Below are positions 869 through 8,112 of a stretch of DNA of 8,112 nucleotides, one piece after another. This stretch comes from a virus (Duplodnaviria > Heunggongvirae > Uroviricota > Caudoviricetes). Numbering within the stretch: the stretch's first letter is position 1; every line of letters starts with the position of its first letter. Location: the IMG/VR virus record IMGVR_UViG_2563366903_000016; one strand, written 5' to 3'. The translations under genes were made by a program, and so were the position numbers. Below the pieces are notes generated by a model. That model was not told where the DNA came from. It was given only the letters and a program-made list of their open reading frames with translations, and made no database searches.

Positions 869-957
869 GGTGTGGCCTCTTCGTTTGTGAATTTTGAAAA
901 CTCACCAACCAGAGGTGGAAAACTCAGGGTGGCGAGACGTACAGGGTTTCCACAACC

Positions 958-993
958 GGCAAACGAAGAAACCGGCCCGACCGAAGTCGGCCC
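958..993 (-). terminator. candidate rho-independent terminator (minus strand)
   Basis: GC-rich stem 974-981 / 986-993 (8 bp, one mismatch) with a 4-nt loop that reads UUCG on the minus-strand RNA, followed on that strand by a U-rich stretch GGUUUCUUCGUUUG (958-973). Confidence 0.3.
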
Positions 994-1047
994 TGTACGC
1001 CCCGCCATAATTCTGACGCGAAAAAGACGTGGCGATACAGTACGCAC

Positions 1048-1089
1048 AAAAAAACCGCTGGCGCGGCTGTGCGCTTCGTTTGTCAGCGG
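1048..1089 (-). terminator. rho-independent terminator (minus strand)
   Basis: Inverted repeat CCGCTG (1055-1060) / CAGCGG (1084-1089) with extra internal GCGC pairing, followed immediately on the minus strand by seven U (A7 on + at 1048-1054). Confidence 0.45.
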
Positions 1090-1165
1090 GGTGGAAATCC
1101 CGGCACCCGTTTTATGAGGTGCAGCGGAAATGTAACCCGACACGACGAGCGCTGGCAAGCGGTTT

Positions 1166-2521: not shown

Positions 2522-3502
2522 TTACGTACTGGCGGTGATTAACATCGCGCTGTAAGTTGCATCTTCCGTTACAGGTCCGCAGTCCGGGCAGTAGCCACCG
2601 CCATGGCGACCGCAGGCGTCGCACTGTCTCAGGGTGGCGATAACCTCCGGTGCTGATTCCCGGGTTCTTGCGCCAACGCTTCGTGGTGCCAGGATGGTGT
2701 TCATCCGGTAACCCTGATAAATGCGTCTGGTTTCCGGTGTGTCGGAATTGGAGATGGTGATGCTGGTCATGCCGCCCGTTTCCTGTGAAAGGCGGTCAAG
2801 CGCTGCCCTCAGACGAACGTGCTCGTCTTCATCGAATGGTTTTCCGTAGGCGGTAAAATTGTCCCGGCCACTGAATTGCAGGTAAGGGGGATCGCAGTAC
2901 ACGCAAAGCGTGTTGCCCATGCCGAACAGGTGACTGGCAGAGTTCAGCGTATCCTTAAAATCTGCGTGGATAAGCAGCGTTCGGGTGCTGTTTGCCTTGT
3001 CTGCAAATGCGCGGATTTCACGCTCAGGGAAGTAGGGCTTGCGGTAGCAGCCGAAAGGCACGTTAAAATCGCCTTTTCCGTTCACGCGGAACAAACTGTT
3101 AAAGCTGTGTCGGTTCAGGTACAAAAACATGGCGGCCAGTCGCAGTTCACGGCGGTCGCTTATTCCCGTTCTGCTGTTCAGGAAGGCATGATTCTCTGCG
3201 TTAAAGGTTTCGCGAATGATGAGATAGTCACCCCTGTTGTTGTGGTTCAGGAACAGGGTTTTCGCCTCGTCGATCAGGCTGTCGGTGTTGTCCCTGGCTT
3301 GCCGGTAGAAATTAATCAGCGCACCATTGGAATCACCCAGGATGTAACGCTTGTAACTGGTGTTCATGAATACCGATGCGCCGCCCACGAACGGCTCAAC
3401 CAGACAGTCGGCTTCTGGCAGGTGCGCCTTCAGTGTGTTCATGATGCGGCTTTTTCCGCCCACCCATTTCAGTGGCGTACCGGATAACAGTTCTTTGCTC
3501 AT
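2522..3502 (-). CDS. dam: DNA adenine (N6) methyltransferase, Dam family, with C-terminal Cys4 zinc-ribbon-like extension
   Basis: Dam-family signature blocks: LKWVGGKS, LVEPFVGGASVF (SAM-binding FxGxG), FLYLNR, FNVPFGCYRKPYFPE, catalytic VYCDPPY, NFTAY. Extra C-terminal tail carries CDACGRHGGGYCPDCG (CxxC-x8-CxxC). AAAGAGG RBS 7 nt upstream of ATG 3502; start overlaps the stop of the upstream ORF (ATGA). Confidence 0.9.
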   Translation of the reverse strand: MSKELLSGTPLKWVGGKSRIMNTLKAHLPEADCLVEPFVGGASVFMNTSYKRYILGDSNGALINFYRQARDNTDSLIDEAKTLFLNHNNRGDYLIIRETFNAENHAFLNSRTGISDRRELRLAAMFLYLNRHSFNSLFRVNGKGDFNVPFGCYRKPYFPEREIRAFADKANSTRTLLIHADFKDTLNSASHLFGMGNTLCVYCDPPYLQFSGRDNFTAYGKPFDEDEHVRLRAALDRLSQETGGMTSITISNSDTPETRRIYQGYRMNTILAPRSVGARTRESAPEVIATLRQCDACGRHGGGYCPDCGPVTEDATYSAMLITAST

Positions 3503-3726
3503 AACGCGGCCTCTTTGTTATAGTTTTCGTGCGTTAATAAATCCCATGACGCCCCGTTGTTTTTGCTCAGCAATCGCCAGCGAAAACCGATTCTTATTAC
3601 CAGGTAGTCGTGGGGTTTTATGCGTGAAAAATTCCGCACGCCGTCGCGGAATAAACGCAGCGATGCGCGGGCTTTTCTTTCCACGTTCAGGGGGGGGCAG
3701 CAACACACATTCAGGATGGCGACCAT
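3499..3726 (-). CDS. hypothetical small protein (75 aa) containing a C8/G8 homopolymer, translationally coupled to dam
   Basis: ATG at 3726 with strong GAGGTGA RBS 6 nt upstream, 9 nt after the exonuclease stop. Stop TGA overlaps the dam ATG (3499-3502). Codons 10-13 read through the homopolymer (TGC CCC CCC CTG). A second long open frame (3518-3706) also crosses the tract. Confidence 0.5.
   Translation of the reverse strand: MVAILNVCCCPPLNVERKARASLRLFRDGVRNFSRIKPHDYLVIRIGFRWRLLSKNNGASWDLLTHENYNKEAAL
3690..3697. repeat. G8/C8 homopolymeric tract (candidate slipped-strand site)
   Basis: Eight consecutive G on the plus strand (3690-3697), inside the 5' part of CDS 3499-3726. Confidence 0.9.
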
Positions 3727-3735
3727 GGCTTCACC

Positions 3736-4317
3736 TCATATGTTCAGGAATGGTGTTGTGAAGCGCTGCCAGATTTCTGACACGACCTTTGCCTGGTAAA
3801 TGGCGTCGCCCAGCGCGGTGTGAGCAATGGCCTCTTTTCCTGATCTGCCTGGCATTTTCCATCCAGTTGATTCAGCCATGGCGATAAGCGGGCGCATACA
3901 GCGCTCGTTCCAGTAGCACCAGGGGATGCTTTTTTCTCCGGCTGTGCGTGTTATGGCGGATTTCAGGATCGGGAAATCGAAGGATGCGCCCTTACACCAT
4001 ATGGTCAGTGAATTGCCCGTGCTTTCGTCATGCATATTGCGTGAAATGAACGCCAGAAATTCGGTTACTGCCGCAAGCTCTGTTCCCTCTGCGTTGCGCA
4101 GGCAGGATCTGGCCTCCACGGATTGTCCGGCCCACCATACGGCGGTTGCTGCATTGACGGTTCCACCGTTGCGTTCTGAATCCACCGGGTCGATGAGTTT
4201 CTCAAACTGTTTGCCCAGCTTTCCGGTGAACGGGTCGAAAAACACCGCGCCAATCGCGAATATGACTGCGTCCGGTCCGGTACCCAATGTTTCGGTGTCG
4301 ATCATGAGATGGTTCAC
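3736..4317 (-). CDS. DEDDh-family 3'-5' exonuclease (DnaQ-like fold)
   Basis: Exo I motif MIDTETLG (D-x-E), Exo II ASFDFPIL, Exo III HTALGDAIYQ (H-x4-D). Likely start is GTG at 4317 (AAGGAG 8 nt upstream; GTGA overlap with the upstream stop at 4314-4316); the alternative is ATG at 4305. Track start 4326 is a GTG directly abutting the SD and is unlikely. Confidence 0.8.
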   Translation of the reverse strand: MNHLMIDTETLGTGPDAVIFAIGAVFFDPFTGKLGKQFEKLIDPVDSERNGGTVNAATAVWWAGQSVEARSCLRNAEGTELAAVTEFLAFISRNMHDESTGNSLTIWCKGASFDFPILKSAITRTAGEKSIPWCYWNERCMRPLIAMAESTGWKMPGRSGKEAIAHTALGDAIYQAKVVSEIWQRFTTPFLNI

Positions 4318-4547
4318 TGTGTGCACTCCTTCTGTTCGGCGTTGTTCGTGAGCGTTGCAATCAGTCGTTCAATGGATGAGCAGGTTTCCTCCGGGGAGGT
4401 GTGCTTCTCTCTCGCTGTGTCAACCAGGTCACGCAGCAATTCGCAGATATGCGCACGCTCGGCTTTTCTTGCGGCCATGCTGATATGTGCATGATGGTTA
4501 GCTGGTCTGGCGGCTATTTCTCTGCCGGGTGATTCGGCTGTTCTCAT
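4314..4547 (-). CDS. hypothetical protein (77 aa)
   Basis: ATG at 4547 with AGGAG 7 nt upstream (track start 4571 is an in-frame TTG). Stop overlaps the exonuclease GTG start. No family recognised. Confidence 0.5.
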   Translation of the reverse strand: MRTAESPGREIAARPANHHAHISMAARKAERAHICELLRDLVDTAREKHTSPEETCSSIERLIATLTNNAEQKECTQ

Positions 4548-4647
4548 TTGTTGACTCCTGAAAAAAGACAAAGGGACCCCGAAGGCATGAATGCCTTAAT
4601 TAATTGCTCGTGTGTTTTCTGGTGTTATTCCGCGCCTGCTTTCGGCT

Positions 4648-4749
4648 TCAGATTATCCCCAGATTCTTCAGTGCTAACCAGATAAGCGCACTCACCTGAA
4701 ATATCACCCATGCAGTAGCGATGGTGAGTATTACTTTTACATTCTTCAT
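4648..4749 (-). CDS. candidate small hydrophobic peptide (33 aa)
   Basis: Untracked ORF ATG 4749 to TGA 4648: MKNVKVILTIATAWVIFQVSALIWLALKNLGII. Begins 12 nt after the stop of the upstream peptide gene; no clear SD, so it would rely on reinitiation. Confidence 0.2.
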   Translation of the reverse strand: MKNVKVILTIATAWVIFQVSALIWLALKNLGII

Positions 4750-4761
4750 AAAGTTTTCGCT

Positions 4762-4887
4762 TTATTTACGGCGTTTGTCGCCAGTAAAAAATAATTCGAT
4801 ATCCTTCAGTGCGTGGATAATTCGCATAATGCCGATTGCCATAAGTACGGAGATAATCAGAATTACCCATGAAAGAAATATGCTCAT
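4762..4887 (-). CDS. candidate small membrane peptide (41 aa)
   Basis: Untracked ORF (under 60 aa): MSIFLSWVILIISVLMAIGIMRIIHALKDIELFFTGDKRRK, one predicted TM helix and a basic C-terminus. ATG 4887 overlaps the TGA of the upstream gene (ATGA); AGGAG 8 nt upstream. Confidence 0.4.
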   Translation of the reverse strand: MSIFLSWVILIISVLMAIGIMRIIHALKDIELFFTGDKRRK

Positions 4888-5126
4888 GCGGCCACTCCTG
4901 TGAAGTAAGGCTCGACAATTTCACCTTCAAACAGTTCTGTCATAATCGACTTTAATTCTTCCAGTGCTTCACGGTCATCGCTGCCCAGCGCGCAGTTGTA
5001 TAGCCCCATAATTGCGCCGCGCAGTGAGTTACGAAGGCTTTCATCCTTAGTTACGCCCCGGTTTGCAAGTTCGAAGTGGTAACGCTGCAACGCGTTATTA
5101 ATAAGTATTTTGTAGGCTTCGATCAT
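4884..5126 (-). CDS. hypothetical protein (80 aa)
   Basis: ATG at 5126 with AAGGA 6 nt upstream; protein-like acidic composition. No family recognised. Confidence 0.55.
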   Translation of the reverse strand: MIEAYKILINNALQRYHFELANRGVTKDESLRNSLRGAIMGLYNCALGSDDREALEELKSIMTELFEGEIVEPYFTGVAA

Positions 5127-5144
5127 GGCTGAATCCTTTATTTA

Positions 5145-5480
5145 TCAGTGCTTGCTTCCCGGATATTGAAAACGCAGGCCGTTGATTAATCTGTCTGCCG
5201 TTCTTAAGGCTTCAAAAAATGTGAAATCCTGTCCGAAGTAATCATCCCCGCGAGTCAGGGTGAAATTAAATCTGCCAGTAACAGGGCTGCGAAAACTTTT
5301 GTGAATAACGATGCCAGTGTCGCCAATCGTCCAGGTGTGCTTGCCGGTTTGTTTTATCGGATGGCCGTCTGGTGTTGCGTGGATTTCAGTGGTTACGGTC
5401 GCACTATTTTTACGGAAGTGCTGGCGTGCAACGTGGCGTTCGGTGTTGTTATTGATGCGTGCATTTCGTTGTTGCTTCAT
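5145..5480 (-). CDS. hypothetical protein (111 aa)
   Basis: ATG at 5480, moderate SD (GAGTGAAGA); basic N-terminus then a predicted beta-rich region. No family recognised. Confidence 0.55.
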   Translation of the reverse strand: MKQQRNARINNNTERHVARQHFRKNSATVTTEIHATPDGHPIKQTGKHTWTIGDTGIVIHKSFRSPVTGRFNFTLTRGDDYFGQDFTFFEALRTADRLINGLRFQYPGSKH

Positions 5481-5505: not shown

Positions 5506-5700
5506 TTACAGTGATTCGTCTCTTGTCAGCCTAAAAATCACTTCAGCCATGACTTCGCTAATTACATCGATCCCCTGATCGGTAAGGGCTTCTTTCCAGG
5601 CCTTGCTTGCACGTGTTGGATCCATCCTGCCTGATTGCTGTTGTATGATGATGAAGCGTAAATCGCTGTATAAGTCTTTTGTTTGAGTGGAGTCAGTCAT
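5506..5700 (-). CDS. hypothetical small protein (64 aa; possibly shorter, from internal ATG at 5625)
   Basis: ATG at 5700 with weak AAGG SD. Its start codon overlaps the start codon of the plus-strand gene on the opposite strand (CATG at 5698-5701). The internal ATG at 5625 has an AGGCAGG SD-like sequence. Confidence 0.4.
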   Translation of the reverse strand: MTDSTQTKDLYSDLRFIIIQQQSGRMDPTRASKAWKEALTDQGIDVISEVMAEVIFRLTRDESL

Positions 5701-6136
5701 GTCAATACCTTCAAATCTTGATGTTTTTAATGAAACAGTTGGTAAAACTTTTGCGTTTCTTTATGAAACTTTTCCCCGCAAAGTAACTATTGATATTTGT
5801 GCCTTAACCGGTGTTTCAGAGCTGACTTTTGAAGAAGACCGATCCTCCAGGAGGCAACTAGTTGAAGCTCTTGAGCTTCGCCGTGACTCCATCGCATGGC
5901 TTGTTGATGCTGGTTATGTATCCGCTAAATCTTCTCCTCCGCATTACTTTTCTGATGCGGTTCTCACGGCCAAAGGTCTTGAATTACTTAAGCTTGATCC
6001 AGAGTCACTTAAACAATCATTTGGCGACAAGCTTGTTGATGCAGCCAAGAGTGGCTCAATGGACGCGATAAAAAGCACCGCATCATCCGCTCTTACTACT
6101 GGGTTATCCTTTGCTTTCAAAAGTCTTCTTGGTTGA
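5699..6136 (+). CDS. hypothetical protein (145 aa) on the opposite strand in AT-rich DNA, candidate moron/accessory gene
   Basis: ATG at 5699 with GGAG 6 nt upstream (track start 5687 is an in-frame GTG). Coding region is visibly AT-richer than its flanks (by eye, not computed). Antisense to the early operon and convergent with cox. Candidate -10 TATAAG at 5669-5674; hairpin at 6179-6204 downstream. No family recognised. Confidence 0.55.
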   Translation: MSIPSNLDVFNETVGKTFAFLYETFPRKVTIDICALTGVSELTFEEDRSSRRQLVEALELRRDSIAWLVDAGYVSAKSSPPHYFSDAVLTAKGLELLKLDPESLKQSFGDKLVDAAKSGSMDAIKSTASSALTTGLSFAFKSLLG

Positions 6137-6178
6137 TTGTTGCGCCCCCGCATAACACCAACGATTAGATTATTTACG

Positions 6179-6204
6179 GCGAAATCTCCTGTTGTGGATT
6201 TCGC
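6179..6204. terminator. stem-loop between convergent genes (candidate terminator for the plus-strand gene)
   Basis: Perfect 8-bp inverted repeat GCGAAATC (6179-6186) / GATTTCGC (6197-6204) with a 10-nt loop. On the plus strand it is followed by a T-rich stretch (TGTGTGTTTGATATT, then T6 at 6227-6232); on the minus strand the following sequence is not U-rich. Confidence 0.3.
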
Positions 6205-6217
6205 TGTGTGTTTGATA

Positions 6218-6643
6218 TTAAGCTGCTTTTTTACTGATACGTTTATTCCGTGAACCAGCTGCTGGCTTAAATAAAAAAAGTCGGTTTTCCCATTCGTGCC
6301 ATTCTTGCGGTGCGTTTTCAGTGAGTCGATCGCAGGCTTCATCCCATGCTTTCCGGTTGATGTAAAGTTCGGCGTTTCCGCCAGGCTTGAGAGGGTCCGC
6401 CATGTACACAGCGGGTAATTTCCCTGCTTTTGCCATGCTCACGATGGCGTCAACGGTCTTGCCGATATACATCGCAAACCCTTCTTTTGACAGGAGATGA
6501 GAAGGGTTTTGTGAAAGCCTGATTTCTTGGCGTTCAGGGGCTTTGCGCCCGGTCTTTTGGTGTGCGGTTTCTGGCGCATCTGTCAACTGATCGCACTGTG
6601 TTTCGGCAGGCGATTCAGGCGCGTTTTGAGTGACTTCTTGCAT
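6218..6643 (-). CDS. cox: Cox-like excisionase/transcriptional regulator with an N-terminal acidic extension
   Basis: C-terminal ~85 aa (EGFAMYIGKTVDAIVSMAKAGKLPAVYMADP ... AELYINRKAWDE) match my recollection of P2 Cox (EFAKLIGKSTGAVRRMIDKGKLPVIDMTDP ... AGEYWVYLPAWN). ATG at 6643 has GGAGGA 5 nt upstream; an internal ATG at 6472 also has an SD (GAAGGG) but would remove conserved residues. Divergent from the repressor gene. Confidence 0.65.
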   Translation of the reverse strand: MQEVTQNAPESPAETQCDQLTDAPETAHQKTGRKAPERQEIRLSQNPSHLLSKEGFAMYIGKTVDAIVSMAKAGKLPAVYMADPLKPGGNAELYINRKAWDEACDRLTENAPQEWHEWENRLFLFKPAAGSRNKRISKKAA

Positions 6644-6750
6644 CTGGTATCCTCCGTTATTGGTGCTATTTCTATTTAGCACCAGTTAGAGCCGCCTAGA
6701 TTGTCTCTAGGTGTGTTTGTTGATGTATAAACTAAGAGAGTTAACTTACT
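6644..6750. promoter_or_regulatory. divergent cox/C promoter-operator (switch) region
   Basis: 107-bp intergenic region between divergent cox and C. Contains palindrome TGGTGCTA-n8-TAGCACCA (6661-6684) and palindrome CTAGA-n5-TCTAG (6696-6710). Candidate -10 TATAAA (6726-6731) for the repressor transcript. Exact promoters were not resolved. Confidence 0.5.
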
Positions 6751-7050
6751 ATGTCAACTAACGTAGGTGAAAAAATTAGAATCATGCGTAAGTCTGAAAT
6801 GCTTACACAAGAAAAAATGGCTGAAATTACAGGGCTCACGGTAGCGGCCCTGCGTCAATATGAACAGGGGAGAAATGAGCCAAATCTTGAATCCACAAAA
6901 AAGCTGCTCAAGTCTCCCGTCTTCCGTAAATACCGTGACTGGTTTTTGTTCGATGAGGTCGAACCAAAGGCCGGGCAGGTGGTACCGGCTCTCGCACACA
7001 TTGGGCGAAGCGAATCGGAATCACCCCACTCCGGCAAGAAGACTGGTTAA
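6751..7050 (+). CDS. C: P2 C-type immunity repressor (99 aa)
   Basis: Length and sequence match my recollection of P2 C: EKIRIMRKSE, ITGLTVAALRQYEQGR (HTH region), and C-terminal PALAHIGRSESESPHSGKKTG against P2 PALAHFGQNETTSPHSGQKTG. Sits immediately upstream of int on the same strand, as in P2. Confidence 0.85.
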   Translation: MSTNVGEKIRIMRKSEMLTQEKMAEITGLTVAALRQYEQGRNEPNLESTKKLLKSPVFRKYRDWFLFDEVEPKAGQVVPALAHIGRSESESPHSGKKTG

Positions 7051-7116
7051 CGGTCCATCTGGCCTTTATTTCTCAAAATTGTGATCAAGATGATGTTTTC
7101 ATTGGGGGGCTTCCTT

Positions 7117-8112
7117 ATGTCGATTAAGAAGCTCGCTGATGGCAAATACTGTGTGGACGTGCGGCCTGCTGGATCTGAAGGAAGAAGATTTCGGCGGCGA
7201 TTTCCTACCCGTGGTGAAGCGGCGATGTATGAACGCCATGTTCTGACGCATTATCACGATAAGGACTGGGTCGAAAAACCTATTGAACGTAAAGCGTTAA
7301 GCGATCTTCTGGAACTGTGGTGGGTGTACCACGGTAAGAATCATCGTTATGGCGCGATGAATCGGGTCAGAATTGAAGCGGTTCTTCGTGATATGCAAGA
7401 GCTTGGTATTAACAGAAGTGACCACTTAACCCGAAAAAATATTATCAGATATCGCCTTGAATTAATGAATCGCGGAATTAAGCAGTCAACGGTAAATCGT
7501 TATTGTGCAATGATGAGCGGTTTCTTTGAAAAGCTGATTGATGTTGAAGAGTTTGTGGGTGATAACCCGTTTCACGAGATACGCAAGCTAACAATTAATC
7601 AGCCGGAAATGGCTTATCTTGCACATGATGATATTCCCAGGCTAACCGCACTTTTATCTGGCGATAATCTTAAGGCTGTATTGTTAAGCCTGGCTACAGG
7701 CGGGCGCTGGAGTGAAGTTGCCAATATTAAAGGTGAACACATAATTGGTGGGAAGGTTATTTTTATGGAGACAAAGAATGGATCGCGGCGGGTTATTCCT
7801 ATAGCTAAAGATCTTGAATCTCTGATTAAAGTCAAAGCGACGGGAAGATTAATGAACCCCAGTTATGCGATAGTCAGAAGTGCAATAAGGACTGTGCGGC
7901 CTGATTTACCAGTCGGTCAGTCTGTGCATGTTTTACGGCACACATTCGCAACTCATTTCATGATTAATGGAGGGAACATTATTACCCTTCAGCGTATTTT
8001 AGGGCACAGCACAATTCAGCAAACAATGACCTATGCGCACTTTGCGCCTGATTATCTCCAGGACGCGGTAAGGTTCAATCCGGTTGCGGAGTTGTCCAGA
8101 TTTTGCCCATAA
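7117..8112 (+). CDS. int: tyrosine site-specific integrase (P2 Int-like)
   Basis: N-terminus MSIKKLADGKYCVDVRP resembles the P2 Int N-terminus. C-terminal catalytic region has HVLRHTFATHF (His and Arg box) and the tyrosine in TMTYAHF. ATG 7117 chosen over the track GTG 7081 by homology. Complete ORF; TAA stop at 8110-8112 is the last codon of the window. Confidence 0.9.
   Translation: MSIKKLADGKYCVDVRPAGSEGRRFRRRFPTRGEAAMYERHVLTHYHDKDWVEKPIERKALSDLLELWWVYHGKNHRYGAMNRVRIEAVLRDMQELGINRSDHLTRKNIIRYRLELMNRGIKQSTVNRYCAMMSGFFEKLIDVEEFVGDNPFHEIRKLTINQPEMAYLAHDDIPRLTALLSGDNLKAVLLSLATGGRWSEVANIKGEHIIGGKVIFMETKNGSRRVIPIAKDLESLIKVKATGRLMNPSYAIVRSAIRTVRPDLPVGQSVHVLRHTFATHFMINGGNIITLQRILGHSTIQQTMTYAHFAPDYLQDAVRFNPVAELSRFCP

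Follow-up and report, generated by a model that had tools for sequence, protein, structure and literature searches.

The stretch analyzed here, referred to as the window, covers 8,112 nucleotides (nt) of the virus record IMGVR_UViG_2563366903_000016 (Caudoviricetes) and represents the left arm of a P88-like prophage (Xuanwuvirus, Peduoviridae, P2 family) of Escherichia coli. Its closest matches are E. coli chromosomal prophages located beside dmsA, and phage P88 is a more distant match. Two short open reading frames (ORFs) for hydrophobic peptides of 41 and 33 amino acids (aa), herein referred to as ORF1 and ORF2, lie in tandem on the minus strand. The reading favored here, with fair though not full confidence, is that ORF1 is a genuine inner-membrane protein gene coupled to the gene for a DUF4754 protein and that ORF2 is a probable small gene carried by an insertion cassette. 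ORF1 is a widespread gene, neither new nor missing from the annotation; a new small gene is plausible for ORF2, to which sequence comparison gives moderate support. The corresponding features are the following:

4884..5126, minus strand: DUF4754 gene, 80 aa (Pfam PF15946, E 1e-15; phrog_2549)
4895..4899, minus strand: Shine-Dalgarno sequence AGGAG of ORF1, 7 nt before the ATG, within the 3' end of the DUF4754 gene
4762..4887, minus strand: ORF1, gene for a small membrane protein (P88 gp07 family), 41 aa (MSIFLSWVILIISVLMAIGIMRIIHALKDIELFFTGDKRRK)
4629..4761, minus strand: insertion cassette of 133 nt, with ORF2 between a leader of 12 nt and a trailer of 19 nt
4648..4749, minus strand: ORF2, hydrophobic peptide ORF, 33 aa (MKNVKVILTIATAWVIFQVSALIWLALKNLGII), 31-34 aa in relatives

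ORF1 and the DUF4754 gene

Both ORFs were found in the minus-strand ORF list exactly where the original prediction had placed them, and each has one hydrophobic stretch, as had been claimed. In ORF1, the best 19-residue Kyte-Doolittle mean is 2.75, and AlphaFold2 modeled the peptide as one helix covering residues 2-39 (mean pLDDT 84.6). A transmembrane (TM) helix is predicted at approximately residues 3-21, followed by a charged amphipathic tail with KRRK at its end. The N-terminus is uncharged and the C-terminal tail is net basic; with the positive-inside rule applied to this charge distribution, an N-out, C-in topology would be expected, in which just two N-terminal residues lie outside.

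The ATG of ORF1 (4885-4887) shares the sequence ATGA (4884-4887) with the TGA of the upstream DUF4754 gene. This overlap and the AGGAG had been the grounds for calling the 41-aa ORF well supported; both were seen, and the ratio of nonsynonymous to synonymous polymorphism (pN/pS) of 0.28 points the same way. In relatives of ORF1, purine runs of the GGAG, GGGG, or GGGA type are found at the Shine-Dalgarno position. Given these signals, ORF1 would be translated through coupling to the DUF4754 gene.

The exact ORF1 sequence is present in GenBank as a hypothetical protein on approximately 50 contigs. A 98% identical homologue is annotated in RefSeq as the hypothetical protein WP_033804633.1, and a 37-aa homologue, gp07 of phage P88 (YP_009113050.1), is annotated as "membrane protein". 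RefSeq homologues of P88 gp07 in E. coli include WP_033804633.1 and WP_000021655.1. Thus, the claim that the two ORFs are unannotated does not hold for ORF1 (RefSeq, GenBank, and P88 gp07), but it does hold for ORF2. P88 gp07 is 68% identical to ORF1 by tblastn and 73% identical in the alignment. Both are located directly 3' of a DUF4754 gene with the ATGA overlap, and both contain the motif SW...AxG-[IV]M[RK]II..[ILV]K.IE..F. The P88-type members differ from ORF1 in their length of 37 aa and in the lack of the C-terminal KRRK; another spacer hairpin and no ORF2 are found downstream of them.

The protein search with ORF1 yielded 13 full-length clusters with 78-98% identity, all from E. coli, and a profile search in 1.84 billion representative proteins returned the ORF1 family alone, with hits at E 3e-24 to 1e-10. 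Matches found by tblastn are confined to Xuanwuvirus-like phages, including Citrobacter phage phiSM. A 17-nt ORF1 pattern retrieved more than 110 loci in IMG/VR with 37- or 41-aa homologues. The most divergent members, P0030 and P0031, are approximately 50% identical and keep the order DUF4761, 80 aa, and 41 aa together with the 4-nt overlap. DNA of the ORF1 family was found in 1048 of the 5426 complete E. coli genomes (~19%), including O157:H7 and ETEC H10407, where the homologue is annotated as a hypothetical protein adjoining DUF4754. Some of these genomes have two or three ORF1-family copies, which implies several P88-like prophages per genome.

Purifying selection on ORF1 is evident in its own frame only: among 53 nucleotide haplotypes, pN/pS is 0.28 in frame vs. 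1.08 and 2.2 off frame, and variable sites are enriched at third positions (p = 0.0098). Residues S6, W7, G19, R22, K28, E31, and F34 are invariant or nearly so. The conserved charged tail after the hydrophobic N-terminal helix (R22, K28, E31, and F34), by which members of the family are recognized, is found in ORF1.

In 133 of the 134 related loci, ORF1 is preceded by an ORF with 79 or 80 codons whose stop forms the ATGA overlap. The AlphaFold2 model of the DUF4754 protein is a three-helix bundle, for which the comparison with PDB gave no match below E 0.7 and no informative neighbor; a DUF4754 query in one-genome-per-species contigs gave no confirmed loci. ORF1 most likely works with the DUF4754 protein or anchors it, because the coupling is invariable, the TM helix is conserved with small-residue positions, and the place of the genes is promoter-proximal and early. 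The soluble three-helix protein would then be partnered or anchored by ORF1 at the inner membrane early after induction or infection. The ORF1 family is carried by prophages in roughly every fifth complete E. coli genome, and its fixed coupling to DUF4754 defines a two-gene unit open to direct study.

The inserted cassette and ORF2

Among the contigs retrieved via ORF1 variants, the distance from ORF1 to the next gene, which encodes 77 aa, is 213 nt in the class represented by the window and 81-82 nt in the short class. The short class has the conserved spacer ATAACACCAG immediately after the ORF1 TAA, and the long class has 132-136 nt inserted at that point. When anchored on the flanks, the insert length is 0 (7 loci), 132, 133, or 136 nt with no intermediates, and 12 cassette haplotypes are distinguished. 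This haplotype set was anchored on flanking sequence, independently of ORF2 itself, and includes the divergent haplotype of locus L151. The cassette is located directly after ORF1 in every locus inspected, and ORF2 fills 102 of the 133 inserted bases in the window. ORF2 would have entered one sublineage as such a 132-136 nt cassette directly after the ORF1 stop.

The ATG of ORF2 lies 12 nt past the ORF1 TAA, after the A-rich leader AGCGAAAACTTT. Translation would depend either on ribosomes that finish ORF1 12 nt upstream or on leader-independent initiation within the A-rich spacer. The single hydrophobic stretch of ORF2 has a best 19-residue Kyte-Doolittle mean of 2.05. The product would be a peptide of 31-34 residues with its basic N-terminus inside, a predicted topology opposite to that of ORF1.

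The original prediction had proposed that the frames be followed in homologous regions and that synonymous and nonsynonymous changes be compared in related prophages. None of the 12 cassette haplotypes interrupts the frame of ORF2. A 3-nt insertion in one haplotype is in frame; the sole frameshifting indel, of 1 nt, is located five codons from the end and alters just the last 3-5 codons. The commonest form of ORF2 has 31 aa and ends in KIWE or KIWG instead of KNLGII. One A in a run (GAAGAATC vs. GAAGATC) separates the 31-aa form from the 33-aa form.

For ORF2, pN/pS is 0.29 in frame vs. 1.97 and 1.18 off frame, calculated for the first 28 codons of 10 distinct haplotypes with 27 variable sites, so that a purifying pattern in frame is found for both ORFs. 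In a permutation test, the substitution patterns were reassigned at random among positions sharing their reference base. Among 5000 such relocations, pN/pS at or below the observed value was found in 0.5% (p = 0.005), or in 0.2% if a stop-free frame was required. Replacements in ORF2 are mostly conservative (V/A/T/I, V/L, I/V, and S/C). The trailer after the stop codon is far more diverged than ORF2 between the same haplotypes. Non-conservative replacements occur in some haplotypes (loci L151, L158, L134, and others), among them L8H in a common haplotype, and some ORF2 copies may be decaying.

The 33-aa ORF had been regarded as weak. This applies to its translation signals; the substitution pattern, the frame retention, and the cassette polymorphism speak for coding. 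By these comparisons, ORF2 is likely translated and functional, and is probably a lineage-specific accessory small-protein gene.

In all 21 complete E. coli genomes carrying the cassette, no feature was annotated under ORF2 by the Prokaryotic Genome Annotation Pipeline (PGAP), and the 31-aa form was found once in nr (DAU42316.1, a metagenome-assembled phage). Lysogens with the cassette include E. coli STEC2018-607 and JNEC-KY177. Ab initio gene calls in RefSeq have a lower limit of 40 aa (PMC11188072), with which the annotation of ORF1 (41 aa) and the lack of annotation for ORF2 (33 aa) agree; the annotated 37-aa homologues of ORF1 were presumably called on homology. A tblastn search with ORF2 in 50,697 phage records gave no match, and a degenerate ORF2 pattern gave no matches in one-genome-per-species contigs. 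The same pattern gave 13 matches in metagenomes, all of them known haplotypes in the same context. No contigs beyond those from the ORF1 retrieval were found in IMG/VR with the conserved-spacer pattern.

Short, hydrophobic, unannotated, and lineage-restricted microproteins of Enterobacteriaceae encoded in AT-rich spacers under purifying selection (Entero67K) have been described (PMC11188072). ORF2 resembles them in these features and differs in being part of a prophage operon, where it sits on a discrete insertion. Neither the ORF1 nor the ORF2 sequence was found in the accessible part of the supplementary files of that microproteome preprint (PMC11188072). ORF2 would be a peptide gene under the 40-codon annotation limit that a phage operon gained on a minimal cassette, and it provides natural with/without pairs of otherwise syntenic prophages. 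Small hydrophobic ORFs are common in phage early regions, and the finding is otherwise ordinary.

Alternative readings and possible mode of action

Several observations weigh against the favored reading, and most of them are shared with the alternative that ORF2 is not a gene at all, the 133-nt insertion being a noncoding spacer with a chance open frame and ORF1 alone being translated. This alternative is considered rather unlikely. The leader of ORF2 contains no Shine-Dalgarno sequence (its 12 nt in the haplotypes read AGCGAAAAC(T/C/G)TT), and PGAP never annotates the ORF. Its range is narrow, with the cassette found in 21 of the 5426 complete E. coli genomes; syntenic relatives without ORF2 exist, and no relatives were found in other contexts. 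The hydropathy of ORF2 ranks fourth among the window's 33 ATG-initiated ORFs of 30-60 aa, below two evidently spurious ORFs and within the range of chance ORFs, so that composition alone is no proof. Approximately 31-36% of the random substitution relocations leave the frame stop-free. The C-terminus is variable through the 1-nt indel, and in a common haplotype (L151 and L158) Q18M is combined with A21D, which brings a charge within the helix. The ORF2 statistics rest on 10 haplotypes and 27 variable sites, and the enrichment of variable sites at third positions by itself gives p = 0.08. A chance frame is nevertheless hard to reconcile with a low pN/pS solely in the ORF frame (permutation p ~0.005), with a 3-nt insertion that preserves the frame and a sole 1-nt indel at the extreme 3' end, and with a trailer in which the same haplotypes differ much more than in the ORF; moreover, of the 133 bases inserted, 102 belong to the ORF, whose start is 12 nt from the stop codon of a translated gene. 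It is the comparative evidence, not composition, that raises both ORF1 and ORF2 above chance. Three further points bear on the favored reading in general. Translation of both ORFs is a prediction from the sequence. Early transcription toward them may be interrupted or modulated by a gene on the opposite strand (5687-6136), so that a single unbroken early transcript is an assumption. Finally, no match to a family with known function was obtained, and the mode of action therefore rests on position and analogy.

The conserved feature of the region 4548-4761 could also be an RNA element, such as an attenuator or a small RNA, with an incidental ORF2 frame. The following features at the end of the spacer were considered in this connection:

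4582-4597, minus strand: hairpin AAGGCA-TTCA-TGCCTT, a predicted fold, nearly invariant in alignments
4560-4573, minus strand: T-run after the hairpin, the whole element covering 4560..4597 just upstream of the next gene
4314..4547, minus strand: 77-aa gene (phrog_22206) with the Shine-Dalgarno sequence CAGGAG at 4556-4561, ending the spacer after ORF2

This near-invariant hairpin with its T-run, just downstream of ORF2 at the position of the terminator tR1 of phage 186, would suit an RNA element. So would the P88-type relatives (L002 and others), in which a different hairpin is found ~45-60 nt past the stop codon of ORF1; compensatory changes among its variants (CCGC/GCGG, CCGT/ACGG, and CTGC/GCAG) suggest a conserved structure at the RNA or DNA level. 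The hairpin and T-run of the window are, however, outside the cassette and present with or without ORF2, the ORF2 segment folds no better than shuffled sequences (z = -0.9 and +0.45 for the two strands), no Rfam match was found there, and the substitution pattern is codon-periodic and frame-specific. An RNA element with an incidental frame is thus highly improbable. A further alternative is that one or both peptides are membrane-damaging toxins, type I or holin-like, that depolarize the inner membrane for host arrest or abortion of superinfection. Short single-helix hydrophobic peptides with charged ends would suit this role, and such composition is common to Hok, Ldr, TisB, and Fst-type toxins and small holins. 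Nevertheless, no Rfam antisense or toxin-antitoxin RNA was found in or near 4550-4900 (none in 4300-5200, E up to 1), and the antisense strand has no excess of structure. The sole promoter-like site on the plus strand (4836-4863) matches at 9 of 12 positions, which corresponds to chance frequency, so there is no convincing antisense promoter. The ORFs have no promoter or long 5' untranslated region of their own and are embedded in the operon by a 4-nt overlap and a 12-nt spacing. No toxin matches were found in PADLOC, Pfam, or NCBIfam, and, as to holins, no lysis cassette is present among the neighbors, which are the Cox-like, DUF4761, DUF4754, exonuclease, ParE-like, and Dam genes. The presence of ORF1 in ~19% of the complete E. 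coli genomes is neutral with respect to toxicity, since the gene is prophage-borne and would be repressed with the early operon. Taken together, the toxin reading appears improbable.

The search for Rfam families over the whole window (E up to 1) yielded only the C4 and isrK RNAs, far from ORF1 and ORF2, and no convincing promoter was found on either strand of the ORF2 segment. The hairpin of the window is weak, is not a canonical terminator by scan, and has an unremarkable fold energy (z = 0.15). By analogy with phage 186, hairpin and T-run may form a tR1-like attenuator or terminator. Its position matches that of tR1, and the two spacers are alike in having a stop-rich sequence of the TTAATTAA type, a hairpin, a T-run, and CAGGAG before the next ATG.

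The favored reading, with ORF1 coupled to DUF4754 and ORF2 as a cassette-borne gene, leaves several modes of action to be compared. The roles in host takeover, exclusion, or toxicity put forward in the original prediction drew no direct support from the searches. For ORF1 and ORF2, Pfam, PHROGs, NCBIfam, and PADLOC gave only weak matches at noise level, to DUF6007 (E 0.096), TatA (E 0.093), and phrog_5011 (E 0.048). No relevant literature was found on DUF4754, Xuanwuvirus, the peptide sequence, or the protein accessions.

The type I toxins Hok, Ldr, TisB, IbsC, ShoB, and Fst have fewer than 60 residues, one hydrophobic helix, and charged ends. ORF1 and ORF2 share these characteristics, but they are embedded in an operon and have no antisense RNA, separate promoter or leader, or family match. 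AcrZ, MgrB, SgrT, Blr, and SidA are small single-pass regulators that bind a larger membrane protein via their TM helix. The two peptides are similar to these regulators in size class and architecture, with no sequence relationship. Judged by this analogy, modulation of a membrane-associated protein of the host or phage is the likeliest class of action, and AcrZ-type binding of a larger membrane protein via the TM helix is the most likely mode. The ORF1-DUF4754 pair would act early on a membrane-associated target, and ORF2 would be an optional accessory peptide.

ORF1 and ORF2 share a reading frame, with the TAA and four sense codons between them, and every haplotype retains the 12-nt leader; a protein of 79 residues with two helices would result from read-through. 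The in-frame spacing may be a coincidence, with a chance of one in three. A speculative model, to which a low probability is given, regards ORF2 as a recently acquired or newborn microprotein gene, seen as a presence/absence polymorphism, that acts as the second TM helix of ORF1. The two peptides would then form a split two-helix membrane hairpin with opposite topologies and both basic segments in the cytoplasm. If true, such a hairpin would alter the action of the DUF4754-ORF1 unit, for instance, the range of targets that it reaches in exclusion or host takeover.

Early gene layout and other features of the window

The remaining features of the window are listed below:

7081-8112, plus strand: integrase
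6751-7050, plus strand: C-type helix-turn-helix repressor, with the integrase divergent from the Cox-like gene
6218-6682, minus strand: Cox-like gene, start of the leftward gene string
6175-6208: 13-bp hairpin after the 149-aa gene
5687-6136, plus strand: 149-aa gene (phrog_2266), between the Cox-like gene and a 64-aa gene, on the opposite strand
3499-3726, minus strand: ParE-like toxin-domain gene (PF24732, E 2e-17)
2522-3502, minus strand: Dam-type adenine methylase
1048-1122, minus strand: isrK Hfq-binding RNA (Rfam, 64 bits)
925-1012, minus strand: C4 antisense RNA (Rfam, 82 bits, E 2e-15)

The two ORFs had been placed in an early operon, and the gene layout is in accordance with this: a leftward string starts from the Cox-like gene and is divergent from the C-type repressor and integrase genes. 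After the Cox-like gene, the leftward order is the 64-aa gene, DUF4761, DUF4754, ORF1, ORF2, the 77-aa gene, a 3'-5' exonuclease, the ParE-like gene, the Dam methylase, and DUF4406. Judged from gene order, this string is the early-operon arrangement of P2 and 186. The corresponding order in phage 186 is apl, cII, fil, dhr, the terminator tR1, non-essential genes with an exonuclease subunit, and then A.

The ORF1/ORF2 pair would be a functional analogue of fil and dhr of phage 186, small host-directed early genes at the same place. In both cases the genes are small, promoter-proximal genes of a P2-family early operon (non-essential in phage 186), located after a Cox/Apl-type gene and before a terminator-like hairpin and an accessory block with an exonuclease. 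The likeness is positional only; neither Fil (75 aa) nor Dhr (66 aa) is a hydrophobic peptide with a single helix. In BLASTP comparisons with phage 186 Fil, which did not include Dhr, the DUF4754 protein and ORF1 gave no alignment at E up to 100; likewise, no alignment was obtained between the 77-aa gene and the phage 186 gene after tR1. The tblastn search with ORF1 over all phage records gave no match in 186 or P2.

The 149-aa gene on the opposite strand is not present in the close relative L001, and it therefore looks like a moron-type insertion. The ParE-like gene follows the exonuclease gene and overlaps the start of the Dam-type methylase gene by 4 nt, with no obvious antitoxin gene adjoining; it was overlooked by gene callers in several relatives. 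C4 and isrK represent antirepressor-control RNAs of the P1/P7 type within a P2-like prophage, and they are located upstream of the region annotated as "derepression protein" in relatives. A 370-aa ORF on the minus strand (565-1677), which overlaps both RNAs, is probably spurious.

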